A stretch of 64,000 nucleotides of DNA, from NCBI GenBank assembly GCA_038128265.1, contig JAYPJE010000007.1:8384-72383 (forward strand), written 5' to 3'. The DNA is from Gemmatimonadota bacterium (GTDB lineage: Bacteria; Latescibacterota; UBA2968; UBA8231). This document shows positions 43,269 to 64,000 of this stretch, in pieces (the first letter of the stretch is position 1; each line of letters opens with the position of its first letter). The notes below the pieces were generated by a model. It was not told the origin of the DNA. It saw nothing but the letters and a program-made list of their open reading frames with translations, and did no database searches. A program made the position numbers and the translations under genes.

Positions 43269-43278
43269 GAAATCGGCC

Positions 43279-45006: not shown

Positions 45007-45010
45007 AGGT

Positions 45011-47302: not shown

Positions 47303-48117
47303 TCGACTACGTAGTCGATGCCTGTGAGTTCCTGCAGCGCTTTGCGGGCGGCAACGGCGTCGGGGCCTTCGCGCTGCTTGAGTAAAGCTAACAGCAGGTC
47401 TGCCGAAGCCGTATCTGCGTGCGCCGCTAGTCCCCGCACGGCTTCCAAGCGAACCCATTCACTTGGATCGCGAAGGGCCGTTCGCAGCAGGGGAATCGCA
47501 CCATTGAGGGGGCGAATAGCCGCTATTTGCGTGGCGATATAGCGGACACTCTCATCGGGATCGCGCATGGAACGCAACACCGCGGGGGCGGCGCTCTGCG
47601 TCCAAATTTTGTTGATGGCAGCCAGGGCACTCTGTCGCACGGCTGCTGCACTGTCGTCGAGGGCTCGCTGAAGGACGAGCGTAGCGGATGTGTCGCGAAA
47701 GCCGGGCAGCGCTTCGGCTGCCGCCGCGCGCAGGTCGGCGTGCGGCGAAGAGAGTAGGAACTGGCGCACCGTATCGATCAGGGTTGGCAGGTGGATTTTC
47801 GATAGGGATAGGATTGCTTCTTTGGCAATGTGCGTATTGCTGCTATGGGCCAGGGCACGCAGTGTGTTTTCGGCGCGGGGAGAGCCAATGCGGCCGAGCA
47901 CCTGTGCGCCTATGTAGCGCAGCGTGTCGGATCCGCTCGCCATAGCGGCGATAAGTGGTTCAACGGCCGTATTACCTTGGTCTACGAGGCGGTAGGCGGC
48001 TTTGCGTCGCACTCCTGAAGAAGGATCGGCTAAGTCGCCTATGAGCTGGTCTGTGCGATGTTGCTCACAGCCTAAACAGAACAGAAGAGCAAGGGGTATG
48101 AGTCGATGGAAAGGCAT
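47299..48117 (-). CDS. HEAT-repeat (PBS-lyase-type) lipoprotein
   Basis: The lipobox is in MPFHRLIPLALLFCLGC. Repeated D(P/S)xxxVRxxA units are present (DPSSGVRRKAAYRL, DDSAAAVRQSALAAI, DPDESVRYIATQI, DPSEWVRLEAVRGL). Confidence 0.7.
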   Translation of the reverse strand: MPFHRLIPLALLFCLGCEQHRTDQLIGDLADPSSGVRRKAAYRLVDQGNTAVEPLIAAMASGSDTLRYIGAQVLGRIGSPRAENTLRALAHSSNTHIAKEAILSLSKIHLPTLIDTVRQFLLSSPHADLRAAAAEALPGFRDTSATLVLQRALDDSAAAVRQSALAAINKIWTQSAAPAVLRSMRDPDESVRYIATQIAAIRPLNGAIPLLRTALRDPSEWVRLEAVRGLAAHADTASADLLLALLKQREGPDAVAARKALQELTGIDYVVE

Positions 48118-48141
48118 GGCGGGAACTGACGGGAATACGCC

Positions 48142-48169
48142 GTTTCGAGAGGCATGTTCCTCCCGAAAC
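48142..48169 (-). promoter_or_regulatory. Intercistronic stem-loop between the DUF4159-like and HEAT genes
   Basis: GTTTCGAGAGG / CCTCCCGAAAC form 11 bp with one mismatch and a 6-nt loop. It lies in the 96-nt gap of an otherwise overlapping minus-strand gene string. There is no U-tract. Confidence 0.3.
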
Positions 48170-48213
48170 AGCGCGTAGAATTAGGTGATGTGAATATAGA
48201 TCGCAGTGCGTTC

Positions 48214-49395: not shown

Positions 49396-50450
49396 TGTAA
49401 ATCCCTTTTCTCGTAGTGAACGGGCCGCTGCTTTGAATAGACGAGATCGCCGATGCCCAGTGTTTGACCGCGCTCGCGCACGACGCGCTCCAATTTGTGG
49501 AGCCGCACGGTCGCCGAGGTCGCAGCGACGGCCACCACTTTTACTCGGCCTAGCTTTACTTGCCTATTTTCTCGCTGATACACATCGAGTTGTATACCCT
49601 CAATAATGCCATGAATGGCGCCTCTGTCAATGCGGTACTGTGGACGGTCGCCCGTAGTGGCCGCAATGACGGTGGAGATGGTGCCCCACAAGGGTAGGTG
49701 TGCGTCGATTTGTGGCAGCAGGTCGCGCATCATGGAGTCGATGAGACGGCCCCCAACTGCCGCATCGTTTTCAAGGGGGGACAAATACCAACGGTCCGCT
49801 GAATTGAGCATGCGTAAGGCTGCTGGGTTCTTAAATCGCTGCCGCAATATGGGTGCGACGTAATCGCGGATAACCTCCGGATGCGTATAGCCCGGATATT
49901 TGTCAGGGTTGTAGATGAATTTACTGTCGTGTTGCAGCATAATGGTGCTATCCTGTAATGCGGACCACACAATTTTATTGCGTTGGGCTTCTATGAGCCG
50001 CACTTCAATTGCCGCACTCAGCGCGGGAAGGGCGGCCACCTCTCTGGGCTGCGCGTCTGCCGAACTGGAAAGCGTAGCCGCACTCGGTTCTGCGTAGTAC
50101 AGCGTGCGGTTGCGATACAGCCTGTCGACGCGTCGCAGCACAAAGTGCAAAACAAAGTCGATGCCTTCCTCTGGCTCAAATACGCTGCGGCCACGCGCGT
50201 CTAACCGCGCTTCTCGTGAGACGAGCCGGCAGCGAGGAATGGCTTGAAATCCCAGCATCGCCGCTTTCTGTGCACGAAAACGGGCCGATCCGTACAGTGC
50301 TTCTAAATGATCCCACTGCCTGTCGGTATCGCTATCGTCGCTGATTGCGATTGCAATATTGAGTTGGGGAGCGGCCCGAAGACCAGTAGGAGCGATGACT
50401 AATACAACGACAATCCACACGCTCCACCGCATGACCTGCTCTACTTTCAT
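49392..50450 (-). CDS. Hypothetical secreted protein (352 aa)
   Basis: Signal peptide MRWSVWIVVVLVIAPTGLRAAPQ. Its stop overlaps the downstream start (ATGA). I recognised no motif. Confidence 0.5.
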   Translation of the reverse strand: MKVEQVMRWSVWIVVVLVIAPTGLRAAPQLNIAIAISDDSDTDRQWDHLEALYGSARFRAQKAAMLGFQAIPRCRLVSREARLDARGRSVFEPEEGIDFVLHFVLRRVDRLYRNRTLYYAEPSAATLSSSADAQPREVAALPALSAAIEVRLIEAQRNKIVWSALQDSTIMLQHDSKFIYNPDKYPGYTHPEVIRDYVAPILRQRFKNPAALRMLNSADRWYLSPLENDAAVGGRLIDSMMRDLLPQIDAHLPLWGTISTVIAATTGDRPQYRIDRGAIHGIIEGIQLDVYQRENRQVKLGRVKVVAVAATSATVRLHKLERVVRERGQTLGIGDLVYSKQRPVHYEKRDLQ

Positions 50451-50641
50451 GTCCTGTCCAATGTAGCGACGAATTTTTTTAAGTATACGTCTCCCTCTAC
50501 GTCATTTCAATAAGATTTTTCTCATATGGTGGCCCTCATTGGCTTGGGCAAGGAGAAGGCCCCGCGTGCCGGTGGCGTTGGGACGGGCAACGCGGGGCAG
50601 CACTTGTTAAGAATTTTTTTCTGAGAGGGTGTCTAATGACC

Positions 50642-50670
50642 TTGACTTAGATTGCTCTGCCAATTATCTT
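50642..50670 (+). promoter_or_regulatory. Candidate sigma70-type promoter for the 50769-64000 operon
   Basis: TTGACT-N17-TATCTT lies in the 318-bp divergent intergenic region, about 95 nt upstream of the ATG at 50769. Confidence 0.3.
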
Positions 50671-50768
50671 GGCCCCCTAAGTAGATGTATCAACCGCTCA
50701 ATGCCTTGGCTTTAGTCGTGCACCGTGCGCGGAGATGGCCGTTGGCATTTTTCTTCAAGGAGAAGAAT

Positions 50769-51701
50769 ATGAGGAAGCTGAGCATTGCTGTAGCTGCAGT
50801 GGTCGGTTTGGCCGGTGCCTCTTTCGCCCAGGGCGATAGGGTATTCGACCTTCCGAAGCTTACCCAGGCGCCCGTTCTCGACGGTGTCATTGATGGCGAC
50901 GAGTGGAACGGTGCCCTCGAGCTCGACTGTTCTCCGTCGCGCGTTCAGGCCGACGGGGCCGAGTATGGCTGGCGCGATATCGAAGCCCAGCAGAGCGAAG
51001 TTAGTGTTAACCAGCTGGTGCAGTCCGATGGCGAAGATGCCGCGATTGCCCGCACCGACGCTGACTTCAACTCGCGTATTTGGCAGGCTTGGGATGACGA
51101 CGGCCTGTGGGTCGTGACCGCCGCCGCTGACAACGTCCATGACGTTGAGGGTGGTGACCGCGGTTGGGCCTGGTGGGAGCGCGATAGCCTCTCCCTCTAC
51201 GTTGACCTGCTCAACGAAAAGGAAGAGTCGGTGCTCAACGGTGAGTACACGGCCTTGAACATCATCAACTTCCAGGCCCGTCCGCTCGAGTCGAGCCCCT
51301 ACACCGTTTCGTGGGCCCGCACGGTTGAAAACGCGCGTTCCGACGAAGATGGTAACGATCCTGACCTCGTCGCCGGTTTTCTCAACGGCTACCGCGACGC
51401 GGGTGATGAGCTTGGTGGCGGAGCGGACTACGTCCTCGAGATGTTCATTCCCTGGGACAACCTGCTCCGTTTCAACCTGCCGGCCACGCCGGTCGTAGGT
51501 ACCGAGATGGGTTTCTCCTGGTTGCCGCCGGACCCCGATGGCGATGACGCCTACGGCGGTCAGCTGCAGTGCTGGGGCTGGGCTGATGACCCCTCCAACT
51601 ACTCCACTTGGGTCTTCTCTGATACGCCGGCGGGTCCCGCTGGTGGCAGCACGGCTGTCGAGAGCGATTCGTGGGGTCGTATCAAGACGACGTTTCAGTA
51701 G
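50769..51701 (+). CDS. Secreted CBM9/DOMON-like protein (310 aa)
   Basis: An AAGGAG SD lies 7 nt upstream. Signal peptide MRKLSIAVAAVVGLAGASFAQ. Contains APVLDGVIDGDEWNGAL..., RIWQAWDDDGLWVVTAAADNVHD and WWERDSLSLYVDL, fitting the CBM9-like pattern. The C-terminus is SWGRIKTTFQ. Confidence 0.55.
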   Translation: MRKLSIAVAAVVGLAGASFAQGDRVFDLPKLTQAPVLDGVIDGDEWNGALELDCSPSRVQADGAEYGWRDIEAQQSEVSVNQLVQSDGEDAAIARTDADFNSRIWQAWDDDGLWVVTAAADNVHDVEGGDRGWAWWERDSLSLYVDLLNEKEESVLNGEYTALNIINFQARPLESSPYTVSWARTVENARSDEDGNDPDLVAGFLNGYRDAGDELGGGADYVLEMFIPWDNLLRFNLPATPVVGTEMGFSWLPPDPDGDDAYGGQLQCWGWADDPSNYSTWVFSDTPAGPAGGSTAVESDSWGRIKTTFQ

Positions 51702-51739
51702 GACTGGGCTTTATAGCCTGATGTAACGGTCGTATTGTT

Positions 51740-51780
51740 AGGTTTCATGCCGGGGAAGCTATTTCCTCGGCATGAAACCT
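51740..51780 (+). promoter_or_regulatory. Strong intercistronic hairpin (partial terminator or RNA-stability element)
   Basis: A perfect 13-bp inverted repeat AGGTTTCATGCCG / CGGCATGAAACCT has a 15-nt loop that can extend the helix (GGAA/TTCC). It is followed by ATACGGGTTTTCCTATTTC. It lies between the first gene and the large barrel gene. Confidence 0.5.
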
Positions 51781-51857
51781 ATACGGGTTTTCCTATTTCA
51801 CTTCACATTGAGTGCGCGCCTCACGGGGTGTGCGCCGAGGATGACGGGGAGCCAACG

Positions 51858-54800
51858 GTGAAAACACCCCCAAAGGTGAATATTAGCCAAAAAGCACGGT
51901 TCTTGGCGTTGGTTGGCCTTTTGACACTTGCCACCCAGGTCGATGCGCAGCGCCATCCGGAATCGCAGGGTCCCTTGCCCTATTATCGCGATGAACCGGG
52001 CGTTCTGCCGGAGCCCGAATGGCTGCATCGTCCCGAATTCATCCGCGGACCGCGCGATCGCTATGAGCGCGGTGCCAATCGTCTTTTTTTGGCCACCGGC
52101 GACGACATTCCCTATCTGAACTACGCCGAAGAGCGTTTTATTCTCTCGCAGCGAGAGCTGATTCCCTGGTTTCAGCCCAAGGGCCGTCCCTGGAAGTTCC
52201 GCAATACGCGCTGGGACCGCATGGGCAATTATATGGGATCCCCCTCGAGCACCTCTTCGCCGGCCAGCGGTTATTTGCGGCTGTTTTCTTGGGAAGAGAC
52301 TCGCAGCGACGACAACGGTTTAGGGCGCAGTTTTATCGACCATCGCTCGCCTTCGCCGTGGGGGCCACCTGCCGGATATAACGACGCCACTCTGCGCATA
52401 GGTCACTACAACTACAAGGATTTACACTGGACGGCTACCGTCGGTCAGAGTGTGCGCAGCTATTTTACGCCGCTCACGCTGGCACAAAGCCACCTCTCCG
52501 TTGCGCGCTTGGACTTCGACAATAAGTTCGGCAAAGATCGCGCCACAATCCTGCTCAACAGGGGGCGAACGCGCCCAGGTGGTCTTTTCTCCGAATGGGC
52601 TTCGGTCGGTGGAGAGACTGAAGACGCCAATCCAGTCCTCATGTACGGCCTGCATTACAAGCATCGATTTGGCCGCTACGCCCAGTTCGGAACGACGGTC
52701 CTCAACCAGATTTTGAACCAGCCCGGATCCGGCAGCAGCAGCCCCCTTAAGGGAGATCTTCCCTACGACATGCTCGGTCCGCGCGTTATTCGCGTATTTA
52801 TTGGCGACGACTCTCCCAAAGAAACCCTGCACAATGCCAAGGTCTACGGCGTTGACATCGTCGTTCGCGGCACTCGCGAAGACCAGTCGGTGACTCTAAG
52901 CAACAGACAGGGAGAATTTTACGACCCGAGCCTAGAGCCCGTAATAGTGGGGGGGCGGTTGTTGAGTGGAGAGGGGCGCGAGGCTGTAGGCCGTGAAACG
53001 GTCATCTACGAGTTCACTATCCCGAGTGATATAACTGCGACGTCGGCCCGTTTCTTTGCCGATGTTTCTGACGACTACCGCATTGGCGTTCGCCAGATCT
53101 ACGATTTTCCCGGGATTAACCGCTCGGGTGAGCTCGATCTGGAAGAACGGGTATGGCCCGACGACTTTGTCGTTACCGAAGCCGTTACGCGCCGCCCCTT
53201 CAAATGGGATATTGGGGAGGGAGAAGAGCCCTACTACACGGTGGCCCGTTCGGATGGCATTGGGAAAAACGGATCAAACCGGCGGGTTGTGCAGTTTGAT
53301 CACGGGATGCCCACGGGGCAGAACCTGTTCTCGTTTGACGCACAGGCCAATCTAGTCGGCCTGAAATTCAGCGGTGAAATTGTTCGTAACAACCAGAACT
53401 TCATCTACCCAGTAGGAAGCAACGACGGTCGACGGACGACGCACAAGGCGCTGGCCTATTGGCTCAACGTCAAAAAAGACATTGGGATCGCCAAGCGTTT
53501 GGGTGCGCAACTGGGTGCTGAAGTTTTTCGCTTAGATCCCAACTACAGCGGAGGTTATGACAGCCAGCGGGGCGGCATGGCCTTTCACTTGGATTCGCAG
53601 GACAAGCCGGGTGCTCGTGTGAAGTCGGATACGCAAGAGTATGGGCTGGTTGAAGATAACGACGACGACGATCAGTGGCCCGATGACTTTGTAGAGGATA
53701 CGGCCTCGCCTGGACGCCTTTCCTATCCCGGTTGGCCCAACGCATCCGTATACCCCGGCCTGGACGAAAACCTCGACAACATCCCCGACGTTGACCGAAA
53801 CGAGAACTTCGTACCCGATTGGGACGAGGCATTTCTCACGTACGATGTCGACCCGCCAGAATTCGTCTACGGCATTGATTTCAACAACAACGGGATGCCG
53901 GACTTTCGCGAGAACGACGACTTGCCCGACTATCCCTATCGCCGAGATCAAAAGGGGCAGCACTTCTTCCTTCTGCTGGATCGATTGGGCGGCTGGGGCA
54001 ATTCGATTTCTGCGGGCTATTACAAGTCGAACGAAATAGCTGGCGGGACGGAATCCAAGAGCATGTACCTGCGCTACGCTCTCGAGAAGGAGCGCGATGG
54101 TGTGGGCAGTTTGCAGATTAACTTCGATACCAAAATCGTCGAAGACAATATCCAAGACGACAGCTACGTCTATATCGTCCCACCCAACGACGACGACGTT
54201 ATTCCCTGGCTCAACAAGCCGGACCACCACCCCGACGTTGCCGGACGCTACCGCCCGGCAACCCCCGATCCGCTGCGGATGCGCGCTAGCTGGGTAAACA
54301 CCGCGTATATCGACGTAGCTTACATAAAACTTGCCAATATGCGTATTCACAATGCGCTGCTGTGGACGCGCAATAGCATGGCTGAAATTCCCCTTGAAGG
54401 GGGAGCAGAGGGCGAGTTGTTGCAGGCCGAAGACGTGCGCTCTCGCCTCATTTTAATCAACAAGGTCGATCGAACCTGGCTGCTTAAATCGATCGCGCTT
54501 TCGACGAAGTTCAAACACCGCCTGATTTACGAAAACATCGATAGCGAAGAAAATCCGCGCACTTCGGCGTCCGACTTTATTCCCATTGTGATGGGCGAGT
54601 ATGCGCTAACCCCAAAAACTCGCTTGGTGTTGGGCGCTCAGGGCATGCCTTTCCTGCCGATGAAGCACTGGGACCGGGCCAACAAAGACGGCACGTATTC
54701 TCAAACAGACTACGCCTTCATGTATAAGATGCGCTCGGAATACTTTGGTTTCGAAAACGACTTCTTCTTCGGCTATTTGCTCACGGATAGGGAGTATACT

Positions 54801-54863
54801 CGATTGCGCGACCGCGACTTTAACCGCGGAACGTTTTTCGTCGAAGTCATAACGCCATTCTAA
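51858..54863 (+). CDS. Large predicted outer-membrane protein A (about 1001 aa) with acidic Ca-binding-like insert; paralog of 58899-61829
   Basis: GTG at 51858 has GGGGAG 6 nt upstream. The signal peptide is ..KARFLALVGLLTLATQVDAQ. The sequence is beta-rich and aromatic-rich throughout. The C-terminus GTFFVEVITPF ends in Phe, an OMP beta-signal-like feature. Collinear motif matches to the paralog are listed in the findings. Confidence 0.65.
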   Translation: MKTPPKVNISQKARFLALVGLLTLATQVDAQRHPESQGPLPYYRDEPGVLPEPEWLHRPEFIRGPRDRYERGANRLFLATGDDIPYLNYAEERFILSQRELIPWFQPKGRPWKFRNTRWDRMGNYMGSPSSTSSPASGYLRLFSWEETRSDDNGLGRSFIDHRSPSPWGPPAGYNDATLRIGHYNYKDLHWTATVGQSVRSYFTPLTLAQSHLSVARLDFDNKFGKDRATILLNRGRTRPGGLFSEWASVGGETEDANPVLMYGLHYKHRFGRYAQFGTTVLNQILNQPGSGSSSPLKGDLPYDMLGPRVIRVFIGDDSPKETLHNAKVYGVDIVVRGTREDQSVTLSNRQGEFYDPSLEPVIVGGRLLSGEGREAVGRETVIYEFTIPSDITATSARFFADVSDDYRIGVRQIYDFPGINRSGELDLEERVWPDDFVVTEAVTRRPFKWDIGEGEEPYYTVARSDGIGKNGSNRRVVQFDHGMPTGQNLFSFDAQANLVGLKFSGEIVRNNQNFIYPVGSNDGRRTTHKALAYWLNVKKDIGIAKRLGAQLGAEVFRLDPNYSGGYDSQRGGMAFHLDSQDKPGARVKSDTQEYGLVEDNDDDDQWPDDFVEDTASPGRLSYPGWPNASVYPGLDENLDNIPDVDRNENFVPDWDEAFLTYDVDPPEFVYGIDFNNNGMPDFRENDDLPDYPYRRDQKGQHFFLLLDRLGGWGNSISAGYYKSNEIAGGTESKSMYLRYALEKERDGVGSLQINFDTKIVEDNIQDDSYVYIVPPNDDDVIPWLNKPDHHPDVAGRYRPATPDPLRMRASWVNTAYIDVAYIKLANMRIHNALLWTRNSMAEIPLEGGAEGELLQAEDVRSRLILINKVDRTWLLKSIALSTKFKHRLIYENIDSEENPRTSASDFIPIVMGEYALTPKTRLVLGAQGMPFLPMKHWDRANKDGTYSQTDYAFMYKMRSEYFGFENDFFFGYLLTDREYTRLRDRDFNRGTFFVEVITPF

Positions 54864-54865
54864 TC

Positions 54866-55630
54866 ATGGTGAATGCAATGCCATTGCTGAACTATACTGG
54901 CATACTCGCGGCCTTGGTGGTTGCGGGATGCTCGCTTCCACCGCAGCCGGTCCTGAAGTACCAGGTGCAGGCTACGCCCATTATTCCCTCGGGTGAATCG
55001 GTTTTTTACCAAGACCCGGTGGACAGCACCATCGTTTGGAGCAAAGAGGGGCTGCAGCTCAAGGTTAGGTTTTACAACGACGAAATGCTGGATGCTCGTT
55101 TTGACCCCAAAGTCAGCCCCTATACGCTTACCGGCTGGAGCGATCCGGTTTTGGGCTATACGCCGCCCCTGTGGACGACCTTTGAGATCACGGTGATAAA
55201 CCGCACGCGCGAACGCGTGGAACTCGATCCTACGCAGGCTATACTGCGGCTTGATAATGGGAACCATCTCTATTGCCGTCAGGGCGTCGGCGTGTGGAAG
55301 ACGCTGCCTCACTACTACGACTACAGCTATCTAAAGTGGAGTGGCCGCGAGGGCAACGTCGAGTTCTATGCCAACACCGACCGCAACGCCATCTGGAATC
55401 GCACGGCGTTTCAGCGCGAAAAACCCGTTCGCAAAGGTCGAAAATATACCGGCATGCTGACCTTTCCCCGCCTGCCCAACGACGTTGAGTCGTTTACCTT
55501 GGAAATCAACGACTTCATCCTGGCCTATGACAGCGCCGAGGCTGGGTTTGGAAATCCAATAGAGTTCACTGATATACACTTTGACTTTACCGTGAAGCAG
55601 GGGGTAGTCACCGTGGAGAGGAGTCGCTAA
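54866..55630 (+). CDS. Hypothetical lipoprotein (254 aa)
   Basis: The lipobox is in ILAALVVAGCS. The rest is beta-rich. It starts 2 nt after the upstream stop. An alternative ATG lies at 54878. Confidence 0.6.
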   Translation: MVNAMPLLNYTGILAALVVAGCSLPPQPVLKYQVQATPIIPSGESVFYQDPVDSTIVWSKEGLQLKVRFYNDEMLDARFDPKVSPYTLTGWSDPVLGYTPPLWTTFEITVINRTRERVELDPTQAILRLDNGNHLYCRQGVGVWKTLPHYYDYSYLKWSGREGNVEFYANTDRNAIWNRTAFQREKPVRKGRKYTGMLTFPRLPNDVESFTLEINDFILAYDSAEAGFGNPIEFTDIHFDFTVKQGVVTVERSR

Positions 55631-56299
55631 ATGAGGGCGTCTGCTCGATACATGCGTGCATTTGCAGCCCTATGTGCCATGACGGCGATCGTTGGCTGCG
55701 GGAATCTGAAATACCAAGCTCTTAAAGGCACCAGCGTCGAGAATCCGCCGCAGACGCCGGTGAAGGTCTACGTAAAGGAGTTCCCCGTTACCAGTAAGGC
55801 CAACGTAATTGATCCCAACGCCGCGCTGGGTGATGGCGGCTATGGGGGGGGCGGTCGATCCATTAACGCGCTAGCCGAGGTGGGCAATGCCATCATGGTC
55901 ATATCCAGGCCATCGCGCATCGAAGATCTGACCCGTTCCCTGCTGCGCGAGCTGCGCCCACAGGAGCTGCGCGTCTTCACCGAGTACGATCGCGTCACAG
56001 ATCTTAATGGCGTGCGCAGCATTGCCAACCCGTTTGTCCTCGTGCCGCCGGAGGACGAGGCGGCGCAGCTGGAGATTAGCGGTTCCGTCTATTTGCTGAG
56101 CGAGCGCGTCGAACAGCGATTCTCGCAAAATAGCAGCAGTGCTCGCGTAGAGCTTGTAGTACGGGATATTGCCAGCGGGGAAGAAGTGCGCCTGCCGCCT
56201 ACAGCCGCTGGCATAAGCATGACCTATAACTCGAAAGAGTTGGAAGAGGCGATCGCCATTTTTATTTCCACGCTGCTGACCCAAAAGACGCTCTTTTGA
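55631..56299 (+). CDS. Hypothetical lipoprotein (222 aa)
   Basis: A GGAGAGGAG SD is present. The lipobox is in AMTAIVGCG. It starts directly after the upstream TAA. A Gly-rich loop GDGGYGGGGRS is present. Confidence 0.6.
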   Translation: MRASARYMRAFAALCAMTAIVGCGNLKYQALKGTSVENPPQTPVKVYVKEFPVTSKANVIDPNAALGDGGYGGGGRSINALAEVGNAIMVISRPSRIEDLTRSLLRELRPQELRVFTEYDRVTDLNGVRSIANPFVLVPPEDEAAQLEISGSVYLLSERVEQRFSQNSSSARVELVVRDIASGEEVRLPPTAAGISMTYNSKELEEAIAIFISTLLTQKTLF

Positions 56300-56300
56300 G

Positions 56301-57953
56301 GTGGTGAGGAAGAGTGCCTTGGTTGCAATGGTAACTATGCTGACTGCGCATGCCGATGGAGCGGATGCTGCAAGCCAAACGGAGACTTGGCGCTGGGGCG
56401 GCGCCGATGCGGATGTCTTGGAGTTGGAGCATACGAGCGTCGATGCCGGTCGCGGGGTCGTATTGGCTGCGCTGTCGCCAGATAAAAACATCGCGCTAGG
56501 CACGGTGGCGCGAAACGATTTTGGCCAGCGCGAACCCCTCACGGACGGGGAAATCTCTCTGGTTGCCAGCGAGTGGATATCGAATACGCCAAACGTATTC
56601 GGCCGATATTTTACCGTTGACCTTGGTGTCAATCGGGCGATTACCCGCGTGCGGGTGCGGCCCGGCCAGACTGCAATTAATCAGCCAGAATACTACATCC
56701 GCGGATATAGAGTGGAAGCGGCTTTGGAAAACGACCCGGATATTTGGCGCCTGCTCGCCGAAGAACGCACCAACTTCAATCTGCTGATTGACACGGATGC
56801 AGACTCGACCTGGGTTGTGGAAGCCAACGGTCAGCCCGCGTCGCGTCTCGGACGGCACGTGCGCTTCACCATAACGCGTCAAGACCGCAGCAATTGGGTC
56901 GCTGTGGGCGATATTGAGGTATTCGGCGAGGGCGTTGAGTCTACGGGCACGGCACAGCACACTTGGTCGCCGCCGGGCCCGGTCAACGTGGGGCGTATAC
57001 GATGGCAGAGCGATGACCGTGCCGGGGGCTTCACATTGTCAGCTAAAGGGGGCGAGGAGCCGTGGTCTTCCGTGCTTCCGCTAGAACCGAATCGTTCTTT
57101 TGCAGGGGCTGAGCCGATTGATTCGCTGCAGCTGCTGGCCGAGCTGTCGACCAAAGACCCATTTTCAACGCCCGTTTGGCAGACATTGGAAGTCGAGTTT
57201 GATGCGCGCCTAATTGCCGATGGGGCACTGGGAGCAGTCGAACCGAATGCGGTGCCACGAGGCGAGTTGGCCCAGATTACCTACAGCATTGAACTGGATC
57301 TGAGCGCGGAAAACTACGGTGTCGATAGAGTGCTCTTGGATGGCGTTGCGCTGGCCGTCGATGCGCTGCGCGTGGATGGCGTTCCATTAGATGGGAACGA
57401 CTACAGTTACAGTGCCAGCGATGAGTTTGGACAGACTGAGATCCGACTCAACCGTGCCATCACAAACTCGCAGACGGCGCTCCTGCAAATAGGGGGGCGT
57501 GCACTCTTTCTGAACGAAGTAACGGATATTGGTTTCCGCGTCGGCAACTCGCTGCAAGAAGAGGCCGATGGCTATATCAACTGGCAAAATGGTCGGCAGA
57601 GTCCAAGCGCCAGTTGGCGCGTGCGTGCACAGGGGGCGCCGGGGGAATTGGTAGGGGCCGTCGCCCTTTCCGAACGGCCTTTTTCACCCTACGACAGCGA
57701 GGCGCTGACGTTCAAGTTTATCGTATCCAACTTGAACAATCCAACCGACGTTGTCCTTTCGCTCTACCGGTTGAACGGTGTTCGAGTCCGACAAATGCGG
57801 CAAAACGGGGGGGCGCGCCCATACGAATTTCGCTGGGATGGAAGGGATGAGGGAGATCGAATAGTAGACCCCGGCCTCTACTTATACGAAGTGAGCGTTG
57901 CAGGCAGCAGTGCTAAAAGTGGGCGGCGAGGAACATGCGTTGTCGCGTATTAA
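56301..57953 (+). CDS. Secreted protein with discoidin (F5/8 type C)-like domain and C-terminal FlgD-Ig / T9SS-CTD-like domain
   Basis: YFTVDLGVNRAITRVRVRPG...YYIRGYRVEAALENDPDIWRLL...HVRFTITRQDRSNWVAVGDIEVFGEG fits the discoidin pattern. The C-terminal DVVLSLYRLNGVRVRQMRQNGGARPYEFRWDGRDEGDRIVDPGLYLYEVSV fits the FlgD_ig / Por-tail pattern. Confidence 0.7.
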   Translation: MVRKSALVAMVTMLTAHADGADAASQTETWRWGGADADVLELEHTSVDAGRGVVLAALSPDKNIALGTVARNDFGQREPLTDGEISLVASEWISNTPNVFGRYFTVDLGVNRAITRVRVRPGQTAINQPEYYIRGYRVEAALENDPDIWRLLAEERTNFNLLIDTDADSTWVVEANGQPASRLGRHVRFTITRQDRSNWVAVGDIEVFGEGVESTGTAQHTWSPPGPVNVGRIRWQSDDRAGGFTLSAKGGEEPWSSVLPLEPNRSFAGAEPIDSLQLLAELSTKDPFSTPVWQTLEVEFDARLIADGALGAVEPNAVPRGELAQITYSIELDLSAENYGVDRVLLDGVALAVDALRVDGVPLDGNDYSYSASDEFGQTEIRLNRAITNSQTALLQIGGRALFLNEVTDIGFRVGNSLQEEADGYINWQNGRQSPSASWRVRAQGAPGELVGAVALSERPFSPYDSEALTFKFIVSNLNNPTDVVLSLYRLNGVRVRQMRQNGGARPYEFRWDGRDEGDRIVDPGLYLYEVSVAGSSAKSGRRGTCVVAY

Positions 57954-58803
57954 AGGCTGGGTTTGGTTTTGTTGCTGTTTGGGAGGGGGATGGGCTTGGC
58001 CGGCGGTGGCGGCCTTTGAAATTGGTGCCGGAGCGCATGCAACCGCCCTCGGAAATGCATTTTCGGCAGGGGTAGAATCGGCCGAAGCGATTTGGTTTAA
58101 CCCTGCAGCGTCGGCGCGGTTGCGCTTGCCGCGCGTAGCCGTAACGCACGGTGTGCTTTTTGCCGGCCTTGGCGAGAGCCCCAGCATTAGCTCGGCAGCG
58201 GGTGTTTGGCCAAGGAACTGGGGCGTGCTGCAGGCGGGGTTTTCGGGTCTTCGTGCCGAGAATTGGACGGAGAGCCAATGGCTGATGGGATACGGTCGCG
58301 TGCTGCATCCTCGACTTGCCCTTGGTGCGCAGATGCGAACGGCTGGCTGGAGTTCGGGGCGCTACGGACAGCGCCGCTGGTTGGCCAATATTGGCGCTCT
58401 CTACGAAGCGGGTTGGGTTAGTTCGCGGGCCTACGTTCGCTTTTCGGTTGTAGTGGCTAATGTGGGCCGTGATGTATCCAAGTCAGCCCGCTCGTCGGGA
58501 ATGCCTGAGCGTTTACACACGCTGGGTATGCAGGTGCGTAATGGCACGCGCGCTCTGTTGCTCGACTTGGGTACACAGGGCGGCGATTGGCAGGTGCGCT
58601 GTGGATATGAATCGGTGCTGCGCGCCGAGCTAAAGCTGCGGCTTGGAGCGACGGTGTTGCGTGGCGATACCGTGAGTCGAACCGGGCATGTAGGACTGGG
58701 GTACGAGTGGAAAAACGTGCATTTCGACTATGCGTTTTCGCGTTCGTACGACCTAAATGACTTTGGAGCCGATCACCGATTTGGCATTGGTTATGCCTGG
58801 TGA
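57940..58803 (+). CDS. Small outer-membrane beta-barrel, PorV/PorQ/FadL-like N-terminal motif
   Basis: Contains FEIGAGAHATALGNAFSAGVESAEAIWFNPAA, matching the G.GAr..amGgAf.A.a.Da.A...NPA pattern of FadL/PorV-type barrels. Alternating beta-strand sequence follows. The C-terminus is HRFGIGYAW (terminal aromatic). The start is uncertain: TTG at 57940, or ATG at 57898 in the ORF track. Confidence 0.5.
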   Translation: MSRIKGWVWFCCCLGGGWAWPAVAAFEIGAGAHATALGNAFSAGVESAEAIWFNPAASARLRLPRVAVTHGVLFAGLGESPSISSAAGVWPRNWGVLQAGFSGLRAENWTESQWLMGYGRVLHPRLALGAQMRTAGWSSGRYGQRRWLANIGALYEAGWVSSRAYVRFSVVVANVGRDVSKSARSSGMPERLHTLGMQVRNGTRALLLDLGTQGGDWQVRCGYESVLRAELKLRLGATVLRGDTVSRTGHVGLGYEWKNVHFDYAFSRSYDLNDFGADHRFGIGYAW

Positions 58804-58898
58804 GGTTTCGAACGCAACAAAAAAAAGGATTCGCTGAGCGGAGGCGAACGTCCATGAAAATAGAGCGGTTTTTATACTTCTCGGGTGAGGGAGCAAAT

Positions 58899-61829
58899 AT
58901 GGAGCACGCGAATCGCGGTTATCGCTTGAGGTTACACGTCCTCTGGGTGCTGTGTGCGCTGTTCGCTCTGGGTGATGTCGGGGTTGCGCAAACGCATTTG
59001 CGCGATCGCGACTTTCTCAATCTGGGCTCGACTGAGGGCTATCTCAACTACGGTCGCACGGAGTATGAGCCCTATCCCGAACTCATCAGTGCGCGCAATC
59101 GCTACGATCGACTGGGCAATTTTCAGATGCGCGGCCATAGGACGTTCACATGGGAACTCCAGCGCCCTGGATTTAGCGAAATCAGCACGCGCTCCGAGCA
59201 GTACTTGGGCTGGTTTAACAACCTCATCATCATGAACGATACCTACCGCGGCTGGGATTTTGGCGTCACGGTGGGTGAGGATATCCGCACAAAGCTCACC
59301 GATCTAACGTTCCACGACCCGCGCTACTACGGTATTCGCATGGACGGTGCGTCCGCCGACAACCGCTTTACGCTGCTACTTAGCCAGGGCGGCACGCAGG
59401 CTACGCAGTCGCCGAATCCCAAGTTTTCGACCTTTCAGGGCGGCAAAGAGCGGTCGTCGGTGCTGATGTTCGGTGGTCACTGGGAGACGCAGTTGGGTAA
59501 TATGCTCAAGCTCGGCGCCACCTATTTCAACCATCACATGCTGGACACGTTCAATGATAAGGGCGCCTTTGTCCGCGGAGACACGCCCTATAGCATGCTT
59601 GCTCCTGCGTTTATCACGATTATCGTCGAGGATGATTCGCCCGATGCCGATCAGGTTGGAGCCGTTGTCTACGACATGGGTATAGAGATCCAGGCCGAGT
59701 CGCTGGGCCAGCAAATTCGCCTCAGCAGTATGGAGGGCGATGCCAACTACGATCCCACGTTGAGGCCGACGGTAGAAGGCGGCGTGCTCAATGCGGACGG
59801 TGGACGTCACGTCAGCGGCGACGGTCAGCGCGTGTTCTACACCTTCCGGATGCCTGAGTTTGCTCTGCCAGATGCGGCTGATTACGCCAACGACCCCTCC
59901 GTGGCGTTGAATGGCATTACGGTCAAGTCCGTTCGCTTCCTAGCCGATGTGGCGGGAGACTATAGGATTTCGGTCAAGCAACAGCACCTTTTCTTTAACG
60001 AATCTGCCTACGAGAAGAACCTCGAAAAGGAATATGTCCCAGGCGACAATAGCTACGTCAACCCGTTTACCGGGTTGAAAGGGGATGAGGCCCTACTCAG
60101 CCCGCAAGAGGCCTACGATGCGGGGGAAGACATATTCAAGCAGTGGCCGGTGCCACCCAATCCGTCGATCAGCCAGCTCAACCCCTTTATGCAATTCAAG
60201 TGGAATCTGGAGAACCCGGAAGAGGTTGCCTATACCGTTGTGCGGGCCGAGTCCAACACGACCGATCTGAGCAACCGTCGCGTGGTGACCTTTGACTATG
60301 GTATTCCTACCGGACAGGCGCTATTTGGTCTCAATGGCCATCTGACATTGGGAGGCTTCGACGTCAAGGCCGAGTTCGTGACCAACCCGCAGTATTTTAT
60401 CTATCCCATTGGGAATAATGCCGGCAAGCGCTTTCAGAAGCAGACTCTGGCGTACTTTGTCAATGCGGTCAAGCGATATGAGTCGCTGTCTTTTGGTATC
60501 GAACTCTTTCAGCTCGACCCAGACTACGGCGGCAACTACGATAGCATTCGCGGCGGCGTCCCCTTCTTCACTGACGTGGCGCAAACCGGTTCGCAAATGC
60601 AGGAAATGTTCGTCATGACCGACAACGACGACAACGATCAGTGGCCCGACGAGCTGATCGTCGAATTGCCCAGCGCCGACCGCCAAGACTCGGGCGTTTT
60701 TCCCGGCCTGGACGAAAACCAGGACCTAGTGCCCGATACGGACCAGAACCTCAACGGAATCGCCGACTGGACCGAGCCGATTATTTTCTACGATGCCGAC
60801 CCCCCAGACTTTGTCTACGGGCTGGATTTCAACAACAACGGCGTGGTAGACTTTCGCGAAAACGATGGGTTGCCCGACTATCCCTACCGGCGAGACCGTC
60901 GCGGCTTTCACGTATTTTCGCGCAAGGATGGCCTTGGTCTATTTGGTAAGACCCTCTCTTTGGGCTATTACGATACGAAGGAAGTGGCTGGACGGGGCAG
61001 GGCCAAAGCGATCTATGCCCGCTACGAATACAGCATCAACTCTCCCTATTTGGGGCGTATTCGCATCAACGACGATATCAAGCGCGTAGAAGACAGCATT
61101 CGCGATGATGTCTATATCTGGCGCGATCGCAGCGTGCAGCGCATCGACTCGCCCTATCCGCACATTACGCCGCGCCAAATCGAGGAACGCGATCTCAACT
61201 CCCAGCTGCTACCGCCGGACAGGGATCCTTTGCTCATGCGCAATAGCCTGGTCAACACGCTGTTTATCGAGGCGCGCACGAGTCCGATTGTCGACTTCAA
61301 TCTGATCAATAACATCCAGTGGGTGCGCAATAGCCAGGCAGCCGACGAGTTTGATGATGGCGTCGTGCAGGACGAGGACGTCCGCTCGCTTATCACTATG
61401 GTCAACAAAGTCGACTATACGATTCGAGCTGGAAATGTCACGGTTAAACCGATGTTCAAGCATTTGCTCCTGCGCGAACACTCGCAAAAGCTCGATCGCG
61501 ACCAGGGGCAGGGAAGCACGCGCTCATTCTCCATTTTTACGCCGATCCTACGCACGCGTCTCGATTTGACCAATAAATCGAATCTCCAGTTGGGATTTCA
61601 GGGTTTGCCCTTCTGGCGCTATACCAAGACGGACCGCGTCGACAGCAGCCAAGACTTCAAAGAGTGGACCACCGTGTTTATGCTGACCAACCGCTCGGAT
61701 TATTATGGTTTTGCGCTGTCGACTCAGATTGGCTGGGAGACGACGCGTCGCGAATACGATGACGAGATCAACTCGGCTCTCAATCGCAACAGCTCAACGC
61801 TGTTTTTCGACGTGCTCGCCGGTTTCTAA
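58899..61829 (+). CDS. Large predicted outer-membrane protein B (about 976 aa) with acidic Ca-binding-like insert; paralog of 51858-54863
   Basis: ATG at 58899 has GAGGGAG 5 nt upstream. Signal peptide MEHANRGYRLRLHVLWVLCALFALGDVGVAQ. The C-terminus is STLFFDVLAGF. Alternative starts are GTG 58800 (GTGA overlap) and ATG 58854. Confidence 0.65.
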   Translation: MEHANRGYRLRLHVLWVLCALFALGDVGVAQTHLRDRDFLNLGSTEGYLNYGRTEYEPYPELISARNRYDRLGNFQMRGHRTFTWELQRPGFSEISTRSEQYLGWFNNLIIMNDTYRGWDFGVTVGEDIRTKLTDLTFHDPRYYGIRMDGASADNRFTLLLSQGGTQATQSPNPKFSTFQGGKERSSVLMFGGHWETQLGNMLKLGATYFNHHMLDTFNDKGAFVRGDTPYSMLAPAFITIIVEDDSPDADQVGAVVYDMGIEIQAESLGQQIRLSSMEGDANYDPTLRPTVEGGVLNADGGRHVSGDGQRVFYTFRMPEFALPDAADYANDPSVALNGITVKSVRFLADVAGDYRISVKQQHLFFNESAYEKNLEKEYVPGDNSYVNPFTGLKGDEALLSPQEAYDAGEDIFKQWPVPPNPSISQLNPFMQFKWNLENPEEVAYTVVRAESNTTDLSNRRVVTFDYGIPTGQALFGLNGHLTLGGFDVKAEFVTNPQYFIYPIGNNAGKRFQKQTLAYFVNAVKRYESLSFGIELFQLDPDYGGNYDSIRGGVPFFTDVAQTGSQMQEMFVMTDNDDNDQWPDELIVELPSADRQDSGVFPGLDENQDLVPDTDQNLNGIADWTEPIIFYDADPPDFVYGLDFNNNGVVDFRENDGLPDYPYRRDRRGFHVFSRKDGLGLFGKTLSLGYYDTKEVAGRGRAKAIYARYEYSINSPYLGRIRINDDIKRVEDSIRDDVYIWRDRSVQRIDSPYPHITPRQIEERDLNSQLLPPDRDPLLMRNSLVNTLFIEARTSPIVDFNLINNIQWVRNSQAADEFDDGVVQDEDVRSLITMVNKVDYTIRAGNVTVKPMFKHLLLREHSQKLDRDQGQGSTRSFSIFTPILRTRLDLTNKSNLQLGFQGLPFWRYTKTDRVDSSQDFKEWTTVFMLTNRSDYYGFALSTQIGWETTRREYDDEINSALNRNSSTLFFDVLAGF

Positions 61830-61874
61830 AAGGGCTCAGCCACTTAGGACGCACAACGAACTAAGGATCCAACT

Positions 61875-64000
61875 ATGCTTCTTGTGAATCTTCTCGTGAT
61901 TGCCATCATGGGCGGTGCTGTGGGGTTGACTTCGCGCTATTTTTCCCCGCAGGAACTGCAGGATCGCTTTGGCTTTGGGCAGAAACTCTATGCCTTGGGC
62001 GATTACGAGAAGGCGTTGCCCCATTTCGAAGCCGTTATGGCGACTCAGAATAACGTCACCATCAATGTCGATGAGGTAACGGTAACGCTCGATGAGTTTA
62101 TTCTGCCCGTGCGGGTTGCTGCTACCTACCAATTGGGCAACACGCACAACAAACTGGGGCAGGATAAGCTGCGTCGTTCGGGTTTTCTGCGCGCGGAGGG
62201 CAAAGAGGACCAGGCCGACGAGCGCTACCAGGAAGCGTTGGATGAGTTTAAGCGCAGTTTGGAGTATTTTGGCGAAATTAGCGCCGGTGAAGATATCGAT
62301 GAGCGCACGCGCGTTATGGCGCAGTTTCAAACGCTTGAAACCAATTACAAACTCAAGCAATTCGATAGCGTGATTGAAGAGGGAGAGCGGCTGCTGGAGA
62401 AGTTCCCCAACAGCGTGTATGAAACCGCCGCTTATTACAATATCGGTTGGTCGTACTATGAGCTGGGTCGGTATGGGGACGCTGTCGAAAATTTCAAAGA
62501 AGTGATAACGCTTTCTCCGCGCGGTTCGCACGCCGATCGTTCGTACTTTCAGATCGCCGAGTCGTACAGCAGCCTAGAAGAGTACGATCAATCGTTGAAC
62601 TACTTAGATCGGCTCATACGGCGCTACGACTTTTCTGCGATGTCGGAAAAAGAGCTCATAGAAATGGCAAGCCTCAAGCTCAAGGGGCTCGTCGAAGAGA
62701 CTTCGCGCGAACTGGTTGCCAAAGCGCAGCTAAAGCGCGGCGATATTTTTGCCCGACGCGGCGATGTCGATCAGGCGCTGGCCGCCTATGCCACTGTGCC
62801 CGAGAAATACCCCATGGAAACGGCGCTGGTGCAGAATGCCTACATTCGCTCGGCCGAGTTAATCAACGAAAAGCGCGGCACCGACGCGGCGCTCATCGCC
62901 TACCAGAGTGCGATTGAAAACGTCGATGACAAGCGCTTTCAAGCTAGGACACAGCTGACCATTGCGCGCCTGCTCTTTGAGAAGGATGACTACGAGCGCG
63001 CAGCGGAGCAATATCGCATTTTCCTCAGTGCCTACGGCGATGTTGCATCGCGCATTGGCTTTGCCGAAGACAAGGTGCTGTTCCGGATTGGCCAATGTCA
63101 CCAGTCGCTGATGCGCTCACACTTGGCCAGCGGTAATATGGAGGGGGCCGATGCCGCCTCGGCAGAGGCGATGAAGCTGTACGATGAGTTGCTTGCCAAA
63201 TTTGGCGATAGTCCGCTGTTGCCCGACGTGTATTTCTCGCGTGGCTACGCACGTCAGCTGGCAAAGGATCAAGGCGCCGCGGACGACTTCAACCACATGG
63301 TTGTAACCTACCCAGATCACCCCGCTGCTCCCAATGCGCTGTTACAGCTTGCGCGCATTGATTTTGAGACCGGTCGCTATGGCGATGCGCAAGCGACCTA
63401 TGAGCGCCTGCTGGCGGACTACCCCGAGTCCGATCCAGTCAATCCGGCTCGAATGGAACTGGGCCTGTGTTTCAAAAACCTGAACGATCTAACCCGCGCC
63501 ATAGACTCTTTCGAGTCCATTGATACCGAATGGAGCCAGTGGGGCAAAGTGCAGGCCGAACTAGCGGATCTCTATGTGCGTTCCGGCGACCGAACGGGTG
63601 CCAAACGCGTGCTCGAGCGCGCGATGGAACAGGTGGATAGCGACGAATTGCGTGGACAGCTCGTCTACGTGAAGTCGCGATTGCACTTTACTGAAGCGGA
63701 ATACCGCGAGGCAATTGAGGGATTTTCCCAGGCGCTCGAACTGCCGATCCGCGAAGATATCTACAACGGTTCTCTGCTGTCGCGAGGTAGTGCCTATTAC
63801 GAGCTGGCCAAGATGCTCGACGCCAAAGGCGATACGGCACGCGCGCGCGGTGAATACGAAGAGTCTCTCATCGATATGAAAGCCCTGCTTGAACGCGACC
63901 CGCCGGCCAATATAAAGGACAGTGCCTTCCGCACGCTGGGCGCCGGTATGATCCGCCTGCAGCGCGAAGACGAAGCCGTTCGCTACTATAAAGAGCTCAT
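61875..64000 (+). CDS. Large TPR / BamD-YbgF-like repeat protein, N-terminal TM anchor (3' end off the window)
   Basis: This ORF is absent from the ORF track because no stop is reached. My own translation from ATG 61875 stays open to nt 64000: MLLVNLLVIAIMGGAVGLTSRYF..., with repeated helical-pair units (YYNIGWSYYELGRYGDAVENFKEVI, ALLQLARIDFETGRYGDAQATYERLLADYP, ..). Confidence 0.7.
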   Translation, partial: MLLVNLLVIAIMGGAVGLTSRYFSPQELQDRFGFGQKLYALGDYEKALPHFEAVMATQNNVTINVDEVTVTLDEFILPVRVAATYQLGNTHNKLGQDKLRRSGFLRAEGKEDQADERYQEALDEFKRSLEYFGEISAGEDIDERTRVMAQFQTLETNYKLKQFDSVIEEGERLLEKFPNSVYETAAYYNIGWSYYELGRYGDAVENFKEVITLSPRGSHADRSYFQIAESYSSLEEYDQSLNYLDRLIRRYDFSAMSEKELIEMASLKLKGLVEETSRELVAKAQLKRGDIFARRGDVDQALAAYATVPEKYPMETALVQNAYIRSAELINEKRGTDAALIAYQSAIENVDDKRFQARTQLTIARLLFEKDDYERAAEQYRIFLSAYGDVASRIGFAEDKVLFRIGQCHQSLMRSHLASGNMEGADAASAEAMKLYDELLAKFGDSPLLPDVYFSRGYARQLAKDQGAADDFNHMVVTYPDHPAAPNALLQLARIDFETGRYGDAQATYERLLADYPESDPVNPARMELGLCFKNLNDLTRAIDSFESIDTEWSQWGKVQAELADLYVRSGDRTGAKRVLERAMEQVDSDELRGQLVYVKSRLHFTEAEYREAIEGFSQALELPIREDIYNGSLLSRGSAYYELAKMLDAKGDTARARGEYEESLIDMKALLERDPPANIKDSAFRTLGAGMIRLQREDEAVRYYKEL

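Follow-up and report, generated by a model that had tools for sequence, protein, structure and literature searches.

A cluster of genes for very large outer-membrane (OM) barrels was found near the 3' end of a 64,000-nucleotide stretch (hereafter, the window) of contig JAYPJE010000007.1, which belongs to a Gemmatimonadota-labelled assembly (GCA_038128265.1) placed by GTDB in the Latescibacterota. With a rough probability of 0.4, this cluster is read as encoding an ExbB/ExbD-coupled trans-envelope machine whose giant barrels would serve as energised conduits, outward translocation or surface display being favoured over uptake. Its inner half would be built like the Agl-Glt core, Ton or Tol, its outer half would be new, and both would be accompanied by a surface module resembling that of the system for type IX secretion (T9SS), formed by a protein with a C-terminal domain (CTD) of T9SS type and a PorV-like barrel. 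To our knowledge, only a few routes carry inner-membrane energy to the outer membrane, namely Ton, Tol-Pal, Agl-Glt/Nfs and the T9SS, and the cluster appears to be another one.

Giant barrels and their conserved gene order

The center of the cluster is a block of six tightly packed genes on the forward strand (51858-61829), spaced by 0-2 nt or overlapping. It begins with the giant G1 (51858-54863; around 1000 aa), followed after 2 nt by the lipoprotein Lp1 (54866-55630), directly by a second lipoprotein, Lp2 (55631-56299), and after 1 nt by Disc, a secreted discoidin-domain protein of 550 aa (56301-57953). The gene for Disc overlaps that of a small PorV-like barrel of about 290 aa (ORF 57898-58803; start codon uncertain), which in turn overlaps the second giant, G2 (ORF 58800-61829). 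The 991-aa form of G2, recorded from position 58854, had an exact match on record. On the same strand, a gene for a CBM9-like secreted protein (50769-51701) precedes the block, and a TPR gene begins 45 nt after it, at 61875, and runs off the window beyond position 64000 after its first 708 codons. An earlier note on this DNA had counted eight packed genes between 51858 and 61829, preceded by the CBM9-like gene and followed by the TPR gene; the packing and the positions of the two flanking genes were borne out, but the interval holds six genes, and eight are reached only with the flanking ones. On the reverse strand, a divergent unit encodes a secreted 352-aa protein with a signal peptide (49392-50450), a DUF4159 protein (48214-49395; Pfam DUF4159, E 1.8e-9) and a HEAT-repeat protein (47299-48117; Pfam HEAT_2, E 1.5e-31). 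Besides this three-gene unit, the window contains the leading two thirds of an operon with about 14 genes. No RNA element was detected by the Rfam scan of positions 47000-64000, and the promoter and terminator scans gave signals no higher than background.

G1 and G2 are true paralogs, with 34% identity over 1004 aa (BLASTP, E 3e-153), a similarity far above chance, and all of the shared motifs quoted in the earlier note lie inside this alignment. Both proteins have a signal peptide and end in phenylalanine (...FFVEVITPF and ...LFFDVLAGF, respectively). No Pfam or NCBIfam model matched either of them at E<=0.1, and no homolog was found among the PDB sequences when a single sequence or a 39-sequence profile was used as the query. 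The sole PDB sequence match of G1, adiponectin (4dou; residues 592-665, E 1.2e-5), was judged compositional because it falls in an Asp/Gly-rich segment.

An AlphaFold2 model of G1, built from the 39-sequence alignment, reached a pLDDT of 67.8 and a pTM of 0.67, with values of pLDDT between 80 and 94 in most of the strand blocks. From residue 180 onwards, and up to the C-terminus, it showed long antiparallel strands that formed a large all-beta barrel with roughly 26-30 barrel-length strands counted and an extra beta-rich insert at about residues 300-440. Judging by this model, the giants are very probably large beta-barrels. The Foldseek comparison with the PDB gave SlpA (E 3.8e-9), MtrB (2.9e-8) and LptD (1.5e-5) as the best matches, and FimD (2.8e-4), SprA (8gl6; 3.4e-4, rank 17), and then TonB-dependent transporters (TBDTs) and porins as lower ones. 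The TM-scores were about 0.1-0.25 throughout: around 0.2 for SlpA and MtrB, 0.13-0.15 for LptD, and 0.20 for SprA, which did no better than other large barrels. Membership of the giants in the LptD, usher, TBDT or SprA families was rejected, as Foldseek gave only generic large barrels; on the sequence comparisons, they belong to no characterised family. The earlier description of both proteins as collinear paralogs, predicted OM barrels with signal peptides and a terminal Phe that stand outside the known families, and of two lipoproteins beside them, therefore held.

The first 180 residues of G1 and the acidic segment 601-693 are highly conserved. Most columns that are invariant in the family fall in this acidic segment (DNDDxD, several D/N ladders and DFNNNGxxDFRE, the last of which resembles an EF-hand or dockerin calcium loop), and it would lie in an extracellular loop if strands are counted from the C-terminus of the secondary-structure string. 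A conserved segment after the signal peptide (RxFLN..Y[LW]NY..Y.P...YDR[LV]G.[YH]; G1 residues ~35-135, window ~51960-52260) was visible in representatives of five of the six giant orthogroups described below and was unstructured in the AlphaFold model. This segment is a candidate for a periplasmic handle on which the TPR protein or the transducer could act. The predicted mature N-termini of G1 (A/QRHPES; 51930-51960), G2 (A/QTHL; 58980-59000) and the CBM9-like protein (A/QGD; 50830-50840) all begin with Gln, recalling the 'Q-rule' (pyroglutamate) of the Bacteroidota as cited in PMC11285876.

A word-indexed search retrieved 58 close homologs of the giants, all of them unnamed or 'hypothetical', and those with a named source came from metagenome-assembled genomes (MAGs) labelled Latescibacterota or Gemmatimonadota. 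The exhaustive profile search of 1.84 billion representatives returned 679 clusters at E<=1e-3, of which 205 were at E<=1e-30, and the members of the distant clusters likewise came from MAGs with these two labels. Among the species-representative genomes, 461 stretches encode a giant relative; 69 of these were retained as loci, nearly all from Latescibacterota, and a few of the retained bins were labelled Gemmatimonadota, Handelsmanbacteria, Planctomycetota or 'uncultured bacterium'. The 122 full-length giants of the retained loci clustered into exactly six orthogroups, with identities of 50-68% within and 31-35% between orthogroups. G1 belongs to orthogroup 1 and G2 to orthogroup 2. The arrangements were also fixed: G1...G2 as in the window (type A), three giants in tandem (type B) or a single giant (type C). 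Therefore, at least six giants of ancient divergence, spread over three loci, are present in each genome.

The order CBM9-G1-Lp1-Lp2-Disc-PorV-like-G2-TPR was kept in all 43 type A loci, scored wherever the extent of the contig allowed it, at identities of 50-95%; these loci include contigs of 3.7-4.5 Mb and complete chromosomes. The divergent 352-aa, DUF4159 and HEAT genes were also conserved upstream of type A loci, on the opposite strand. Type B loci follow the order G-G-G-TPR-Lp1-CBM9-DUF4159 and type C loci the order DUF4159-(small ORF)-Disc-G-TPR-Lp1, and a distant form (L068 and L069) reads DUF4159-Disc-G-G-TPR-ExbB-ExbD-ExbD-Lp1-G. The recurring core is thus one or more giants, a TPR protein of about 1050-1090 aa, Lp1 and DUF4159, together with the CBM9-like protein, Disc or both. 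The proposal of an undescribed envelope gene set was upheld by this strong co-conservation, and the 'two-barrel machine' of the earlier note did not hold in general, because the number of giants varies from one to three among paralogous loci and each genome has six orthogroups. The presence of three copies per genome in a widespread uncultured phylum of the FCB group points to a core envelope role. The OM half of the system consists of families undescribed in databases, namely the six orthogroups of ~1000-aa barrels and at least two lipoprotein families.

Motor, candidate transducer and surface module

In close relatives of the window's cluster, the TPR gene is followed by genes for MotA/ExbB (E 1.4e-29) and two ExbD proteins (2.2e-26 and 5.2e-27), and then by a 265-aa lipoprotein paralogous to Lp1, a 570-aa peptidyl-prolyl isomerase (PPIase) of the PpiC type and a 662-aa polytopic membrane protein. 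The downstream intergenic gaps in one of these loci, L051, were of 81 nt or less. The TPR gene was immediately followed by ExbB-ExbD-ExbD in L051, L032, L033 and L044, where G2 is 88-91% (L051 and L032), 78% (L044) and 59% (L033) identical to that of the window. The window's own downstream genes are inferred from these relatives. ExbB/ExbD genes were also found beside the TPR or DUF4159 gene in L056 (type C), in L062 (type B) and in L068/L069, and this recurrence in differently arranged paralogous loci argues for a functional coupling of the motor to the system. The motor is encoded at one locus, and the paralogous loci often do not carry it. The ExbB protein scored 95.5 bits with the TolQ model and 70.1 bits with the ExbB model, both below cut-off.

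No family match was obtained for the 662-aa protein, and a kinship with DUF6785 was tested without finding a link. Type B loci end in a DUF6785+DUF6784 polytopic membrane protein (E 4e-114; L057 18899-20851, L041 22053-22532, L053 15015-15692), to which the 662-aa protein at the end of type A loci is unrelated.

A copy of the DUF4159 protein is present in all three locus types. From the N-terminus on, it has a short tail in the cytoplasm, a single transmembrane helix that contains a His, a basic Pro-rich linker KFIKREPRLTKPLELRKIPKPKRQ and the DUF4159 domain; the His is kept in 17 of the 19 aligned family members, and the linker is conserved as KF.KR.P...KPLE.RK.P.P, rich in Pro, Lys and Arg. 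TonB and TolA have the same layout of tail, helix and linker, and their helix His contacts the motor. Furthermore, a 2025 analysis proposed non-TonB 'vWA force transducers' of the same layout, of unknown function, encoded downstream of TPR-tolQ-tolR-tolR genes (PMC12204202). By these features the DUF4159 protein is a candidate force transducer; with the vWA head of the 2025 proposal as the first, DUF4159 would be the second head of a non-TonB transducer. Its only PDB relative was 4i66, an uncharacterised structural-genomics protein, and the literature search found no paper discussing the function of DUF4159. The ExbB-ExbD-ExbD genes past the window end and the conservation of the DUF4159 protein indicate that the system is motor-linked. 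Orthologs of the 352-aa secreted protein, for which no Pfam or NCBIfam match was found, occupied the same position in 31 loci and were co-conserved with type A. A HEAT-repeat ortholog was present at the same upstream position in many type A loci (at least 20), and it is uncertain whether this protein is part of the system.

The TPR gene is preceded by an AAGGA ribosome-binding site before its ATG, and its full-length product has 1089-1091 aa in L051 and L032. The protein carries a hydrophobic anchor at its N-terminus and TPR modules of a CpoB/BamD-like kind, and its fragment in the window matched Pfam TPR families. It begins directly with the hydrophobic helix MLLVNLLVIAIMGGAVGL (window 61875-61940), followed by an Arg in all orthologs. 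The window's fragment scored 134.5 bits with the NCBIfam model tol_pal_ybgF (TIGR02795; cut-off 90.1), summed over five repeated stretches, and 86.4 bits with OM_YfiO, again a summed score above cut-off; these CpoB/BamD-type scores reflect repeats and do not by themselves indicate orthology. The PorW/SprE model matched it weakly (83.5 bits, cut-off 250), as generic TPR similarity, and no Glt-named model was among its NCBIfam matches.

Both lipoproteins have a lipobox with its Cys (...VVAGC in Lp1 and ...IVGC in Lp2). Paralogs of Lp1 are present in all locus types. Lp1 had no Pfam, NCBIfam or PDB sequence match, and its AlphaFold2 model (pLDDT 85.9), a beta-sandwich with a helical insert, gave weak generic Ig-like/MPT63/YjhA matches in Foldseek (best E 6e-3). 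No functional analog was taken from this structure, a generic beta-sandwich only. Lp2 is restricted to type A loci, with a mean column identity of 62% across 15 orthologs, and had no Pfam, NCBIfam or PDB match.

The CBM9-like protein matched Pfam CBM9_1 above cut-off (E 6.5e-7). Its orthologs head every type A locus and its paralogs are found in type B loci. All of the orthologs (L004-L040; window 51620-51701) end in a near-invariant AGP..G.TAVE.DSWGR[IV]K.TF.Q at the extreme C-terminus, which matched no known signal and could be a docking or sorting peptide.

Regarding the surface module, the Disc family matched Pfam FlgD_ig in 23/23 and F5_F8_type_C in 21/23 sequences (best E 3.5e-12), and CHU_C in 7/23 relatives. 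For the window's protein alone, the discoidin and FlgD_ig matches were below cut-off (FlgD_ig 18.1 bits, cut-off 27; TIGR04183 13.4 bits, cut-off 23), so the discoidin domain and FlgD-Ig tail of the earlier note were confirmed at the level of the family. The Disc profile found neuropilin b1, FlgD and the CTD of PorU (6za2 residues 1066-1155, E 4.6e-3) in the PDB, and the CTD of Disc is at the extreme C-terminus in all orthologs. The PorV-like barrel matched NCBIfam PorV_fam (E 1.4e-11, 44.5 bits, cut-off 90), as did 14/14 orthologs, all at 44.5 bits or less, and its distant profile relatives carry Pfam PorV (PF19572), FadL or TraF_2. These matches support its placement in the PorV/PorQ/FadL superfamily, as had been claimed, although orthology to PorV is not established by scores below cut-off. 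CTD proteins are paired with barrels in PorU-PorV, in PorZ-PorQ and in the type B CTD/PorP pairs (see also PMC9143113), and by analogy the PorV-like barrel probably keeps Disc attached to the surface. Disc is a fixed component of the locus and not variable cargo; the earlier note had suggested a substrate or an adhesin.

Two further observations concern CTD proteins. In L074 (5214-9929), which is from another metagenomic contig, the gene directly after that of a 1061-aa PQQ-propeller protein with a Por_Secre_tail encodes a 499-aa protein distantly related to the PorV-like barrel, the same pairing of CTD protein and anchor barrel as that of Disc and the PorV-like gene. In L046 (24-6011) and L049 (26-6241), the type C locus has an array of three to four unrelated proteins immediately upstream. 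Five of the six proteins of these arrays were scanned against TIGR04183, and all five passed the cut-off for the type A sorting domain of the T9SS; therefore, this phylum uses T9SS-type sorting domains. An enrichment of CTD cargo as a general support for secretion was rejected, since the other type C loci have no such arrays.

Three FG-GAP/UnbV_ASPIC (CRTAC1-like) proteins, one of them fused to TPRs, and two TPR proteins are encoded on both strands at 38882-47458, just upstream of the DUF4159 unit. Comparable FG-GAP/ASPIC and TPR genes were seen upstream in L001-L003; they may be linked to the system or be mere neighbours. At the other end of the window (86-11440, forward strand), six consecutive genes encode products of 520-757 aa with C-terminal TPR repeats, a tandem paralog array whose N-terminal halves (~300-400 aa) had no Pfam match. 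Wza-like (Poly_export/SLBB) and Wzz/GNVR polysaccharide-export genes are found at 15225-18126, after which the GC content falls to 0.516 (18001-20000), where a tRNA-Tyr (18441-18525) and a sigma-70 gene are located. The window genes outside the cluster are those of an ordinary chromosome, such as lepA, signal peptidase, Wza/Wzz, sigma-70, mdh, alr, argG and the single tRNA-Tyr.

Direction of transport and rival explanations

In the machine proposed here, the ExbB/ExbD proton motor would drive the DUF4159 transducer and the TPR scaffold, and both would couple to the conserved N-terminal segments of the giant barrels. These barrels and their lipoprotein partners would form energised conduits for a macromolecule, and Disc would stay attached to the cell surface through the docking of its CTD on the PorV-like barrel. 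All the characterised single-chain barrels of at least 24 strands that we know of handle a macromolecule (lipopolysaccharide, pilins, proteins or a cytochrome), and the giants are for that reason most simply taken as conduits; the barrels among the fold matches (SlpA, MtrB, LptD, FimD and SprA) are all macromolecule conduits or sheaths. Outward translocation or display was favoured because the loci combine a PPIase, a BamD-like TPR protein and a surface-anchoring pair, and have no plug, TonB box, binding proteins or hydrolases. A more specific version, in which the giants, alone or in hetero-oligomers with Lp1/Lp2, would be the conduit of a new class of protein export and display, driven by the proton motive force through ExbB/ExbD, a TonB-like transducer with a DUF4159 head and the 1090-aa TPR scaffold, replacing the SprA-based T9SS for CTD proteins in Latescibacterota and handing these to PorV-like anchors, is regarded as doubtful. 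As for the secretion machine of the earlier note, the envelope gene set stood and secretion as its function is only inferred. The outcomes that the note had named as telling against its proposal were not those obtained: the giants matched no known family, the model was a barrel and the gene set was co-conserved.

Several points weigh against this proposal. The transport direction has no direct feature to mark it, and the polytopic inner-membrane proteins at the ends of types A and B, together with the sugar-binding modules, fit uptake equally well. The motor genes lie outside the window, having been seen in relatives with a G2 59-91% identical, and they are absent between the TPR and Lp1b genes in two of the six visible type A loci (L030 and L035). 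The role of the DUF4159 protein as a transducer rests on sequence features, and the His is absent in 2/19 sequences. The membrane side of the TPR protein (periplasmic or cytoplasmic) is unsettled because its N-terminal helix has no basic n-region in any of the orthologs. The model of G1 is of medium confidence, and its N-terminal 180 residues and invariant acidic segment 601-693 are unmodelled. The CTD HMM search found extra CTD proteins near only two related loci, L046 and L049, and the Disc/PorV-like pair may simply be a client of a canonical T9SS if these genomes hold one. Finally, the host phylum is uncultured and the system is known here from genes alone.

The alternative that survives best, although considered rather unlikely, is energised uptake, in which the giants would be analogs of a TBDT or SusC, plug-less or differently plugged, and powered via DUF4159. 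The CBM9-like and discoidin proteins would then capture glycans or glycoproteins as SusD/E/F do, and the polytopic inner-membrane proteins would complete the import. The ExbB/ExbD genes in the operon, the carbohydrate-binding folds (CBM9_1 and F5/8 type C) and the membrane proteins at the locus ends (662-aa in type A, DUF6785/DUF6784 in type B) are consistent with this, as are the multiple paralogous barrels per genome, which recall TBDT families, and the prediction that Latescibacteria are polymer degraders (PMC4454575). Nevertheless, the giants had no Pfam Plug or TonB_dep_Rec match and no recognisable TonB box, TBDTs were weak fold matches to the G1 model only (E above 1e-3), and the TonB_C domain was not matched anywhere in the cluster. 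The loci contained neither glycoside hydrolases nor binding proteins nor regulators, and their genes and gene order are fixed throughout the phylum, in contrast to substrate-specific utilisation loci. Moreover, the phylum has conventional receptors with a Plug domain, and TonB with them, apart from this system, and they are the only TonB receptors mentioned in its 2015 genome paper (PMC4454575).

Next stands a complex for envelope integrity, tethering or surface movement, of the Tol-Pal or Agl-Glt/Nfs kind, with the giants and lipoproteins as platforms rather than channels, for adhesion, gliding, deposition of a surface polymer or OM constriction. The Glt core is mirrored by a single TolQ-like protein beside two of the TolR kind, by a TPR protein exceeding 1000 aa and by an anchored Pro-rich protein, and the better, though sub-cut-off, score of ExbB with the TolQ model and the CpoB/BamD-like TPR modules point the same way. 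The Agl motor reportedly serves both Glt and Nfs, to which the single motor locus and the often motorless paralogous loci could be compared, and SlpA, the top fold match, is a tethering barrel. This explanation is nonetheless thought unlikely: the loci contain no peptidoglycan-binding OmpA/Pal domain, TolB propeller or cytoplasmic track proteins, and barrels of ~26-30 strands are far larger than an anchor requires.

A highly divergent true T9SS, with the giants as split or shrunken SprA homologs and the cluster as the CTD secretion system of the phylum, is very improbable. It would account for the PorV-superfamily barrel and the T9SS-type CTD protein, for the TIGR04183 CTDs of the phylum and for the PPIase of the operon, PDB entry 8gl8 listing a PPI subunit in the SprA translocon; the weak PorW/SprE match and the presence of SprA among the fold matches (E 3.4e-4) could also be cited. 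However, no sequence match to the models of SprA, GldK/L/M/N, PorU or PorT was found, SprA ranked 17th with a TM-score of 0.2, like any large barrel, and the PorW match was generic TPR similarity. The motor is ExbB/ExbD instead of GldL/GldM, and there are six giant paralogs per genome against one translocon. Lastly, a merely adjacent set of unrelated OM proteins, a T9SS client pair and housekeeping Tol/Exb genes, although several assignments are sub-threshold, is already disfavoured and hardly credible in view of genes that overlap or lie 0-2 nt apart, of an order unchanged over 43 loci at 50-95% identity and of the re-assortment of the same families in two further paralogous loci per genome.

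Export, if that were the true function, would account for the movement of proteins with T9SS-type sorting domains in this phylum, and if uptake were, the giants would represent a new class of energised nutrient gate. Either way, the genes are defined targets for structure prediction, metaproteomics and heterologous reconstitution.

Comparison with known systems

The cluster corresponds to none of the canonical T9SS, Ton, Tol-Pal and Lpt systems. Among large-barrel systems, LptD-LptE, MtrB-MtrA/C and the Deinococcus SlpA gave the best fold matches, and the lipoprotein gene directly 3' of the barrel gene recalls LptE, the partner of LptD. On the other hand, the TM-scores were only around 0.2, no LptD/OstA, SLH or cytochrome signatures were present here, and the Foldseek search with the Lp1 model returned no LptE-like match. 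With regard to Tol-Pal, no TolB beta-propeller or Pal (OmpA-like) domain was found in the window or in the downstream genes of its relatives.

The resemblance to the TonB and vWA-transducer systems lies in the ExbB-ExbD-ExbD genes after a TPR gene and in an anchored protein with a helix His, a Pro-rich linker and a non-TonB globular head. The differences are that this head is DUF4159, not vWA or TonB_C, and that the gene for the transducer either diverges from the motor genes or lies distal to them. In Fibrobacter succinogenes, a cluster of the order OmpA-TPR-TPR-ExbB-ExbD-ExbD-TonB has been described (FSU_2396-2403; PMC6851124), and it may be related to the present system.

The T9SS combines the SprA translocon with PorV, PPI, SprE/PorW and a GldLM motor. 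With it, the cluster shares a very large OM barrel, a PorV-superfamily barrel, a protein with a T9SS-type CTD, a large TPR protein and a PPIase, as well as a proton-driven motor of the 5:2-type family and its occurrence in the FCB group. It differs in having barrels of ~1000 aa in six paralogs instead of one of ~2400 aa, an ExbB/ExbD and not a GldL/GldM motor, and a PPIase of the PpiC type of ~570 aa. No homologs of SprA, GldK/L/M/N, PorU or PorT were found among the window genes or in the related loci, and no paper linking Latescibacteria with the T9SS was found in the literature searched. The T9SS analogy drawn in the earlier note has as its basis only the CTD/PorV-like pair, the TPR protein, the PPIase and a motor of another family, the locus containing no homolog of SprA, GldK/L/M/N or PorU.

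The closest architectural counterpart is the Agl-Glt/Nfs core complex of Myxococcus and its relatives (AglR/Q/S, GltD, GltE, GltG and GltC; PMC3169522), in which the Glt core has a single TolQ-like protein, two of the TolR-like kind, a TPR protein of 1191 aa and a TonB-like one. Architecturally, the present system resembles Agl-Glt/Nfs in its one TolQ/ExbB-like and two TolR/ExbD-like genes and TPR protein of more than 1000 aa, in its single-pass inner-membrane protein with a Pro-rich TonB-like linker, in its OM barrels and lipoproteins, and in the multiple paralogous gene sets per genome, some of them motorless. It departs from Agl-Glt/Nfs in its ~1000-aa barrels of a new family, compared with the small GltA/B/H barrels, in a DUF4159 head where a TonB-C-like domain is found in Glt, and in its CTD-protein/PorV-like pair and CBM9-like protein, with no cytoplasmic Glt components seen. 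By analogy, and with Glt compared by architecture, the system would be a functional parallel to both the T9SS and Agl-Glt/Nfs and a member of neither.

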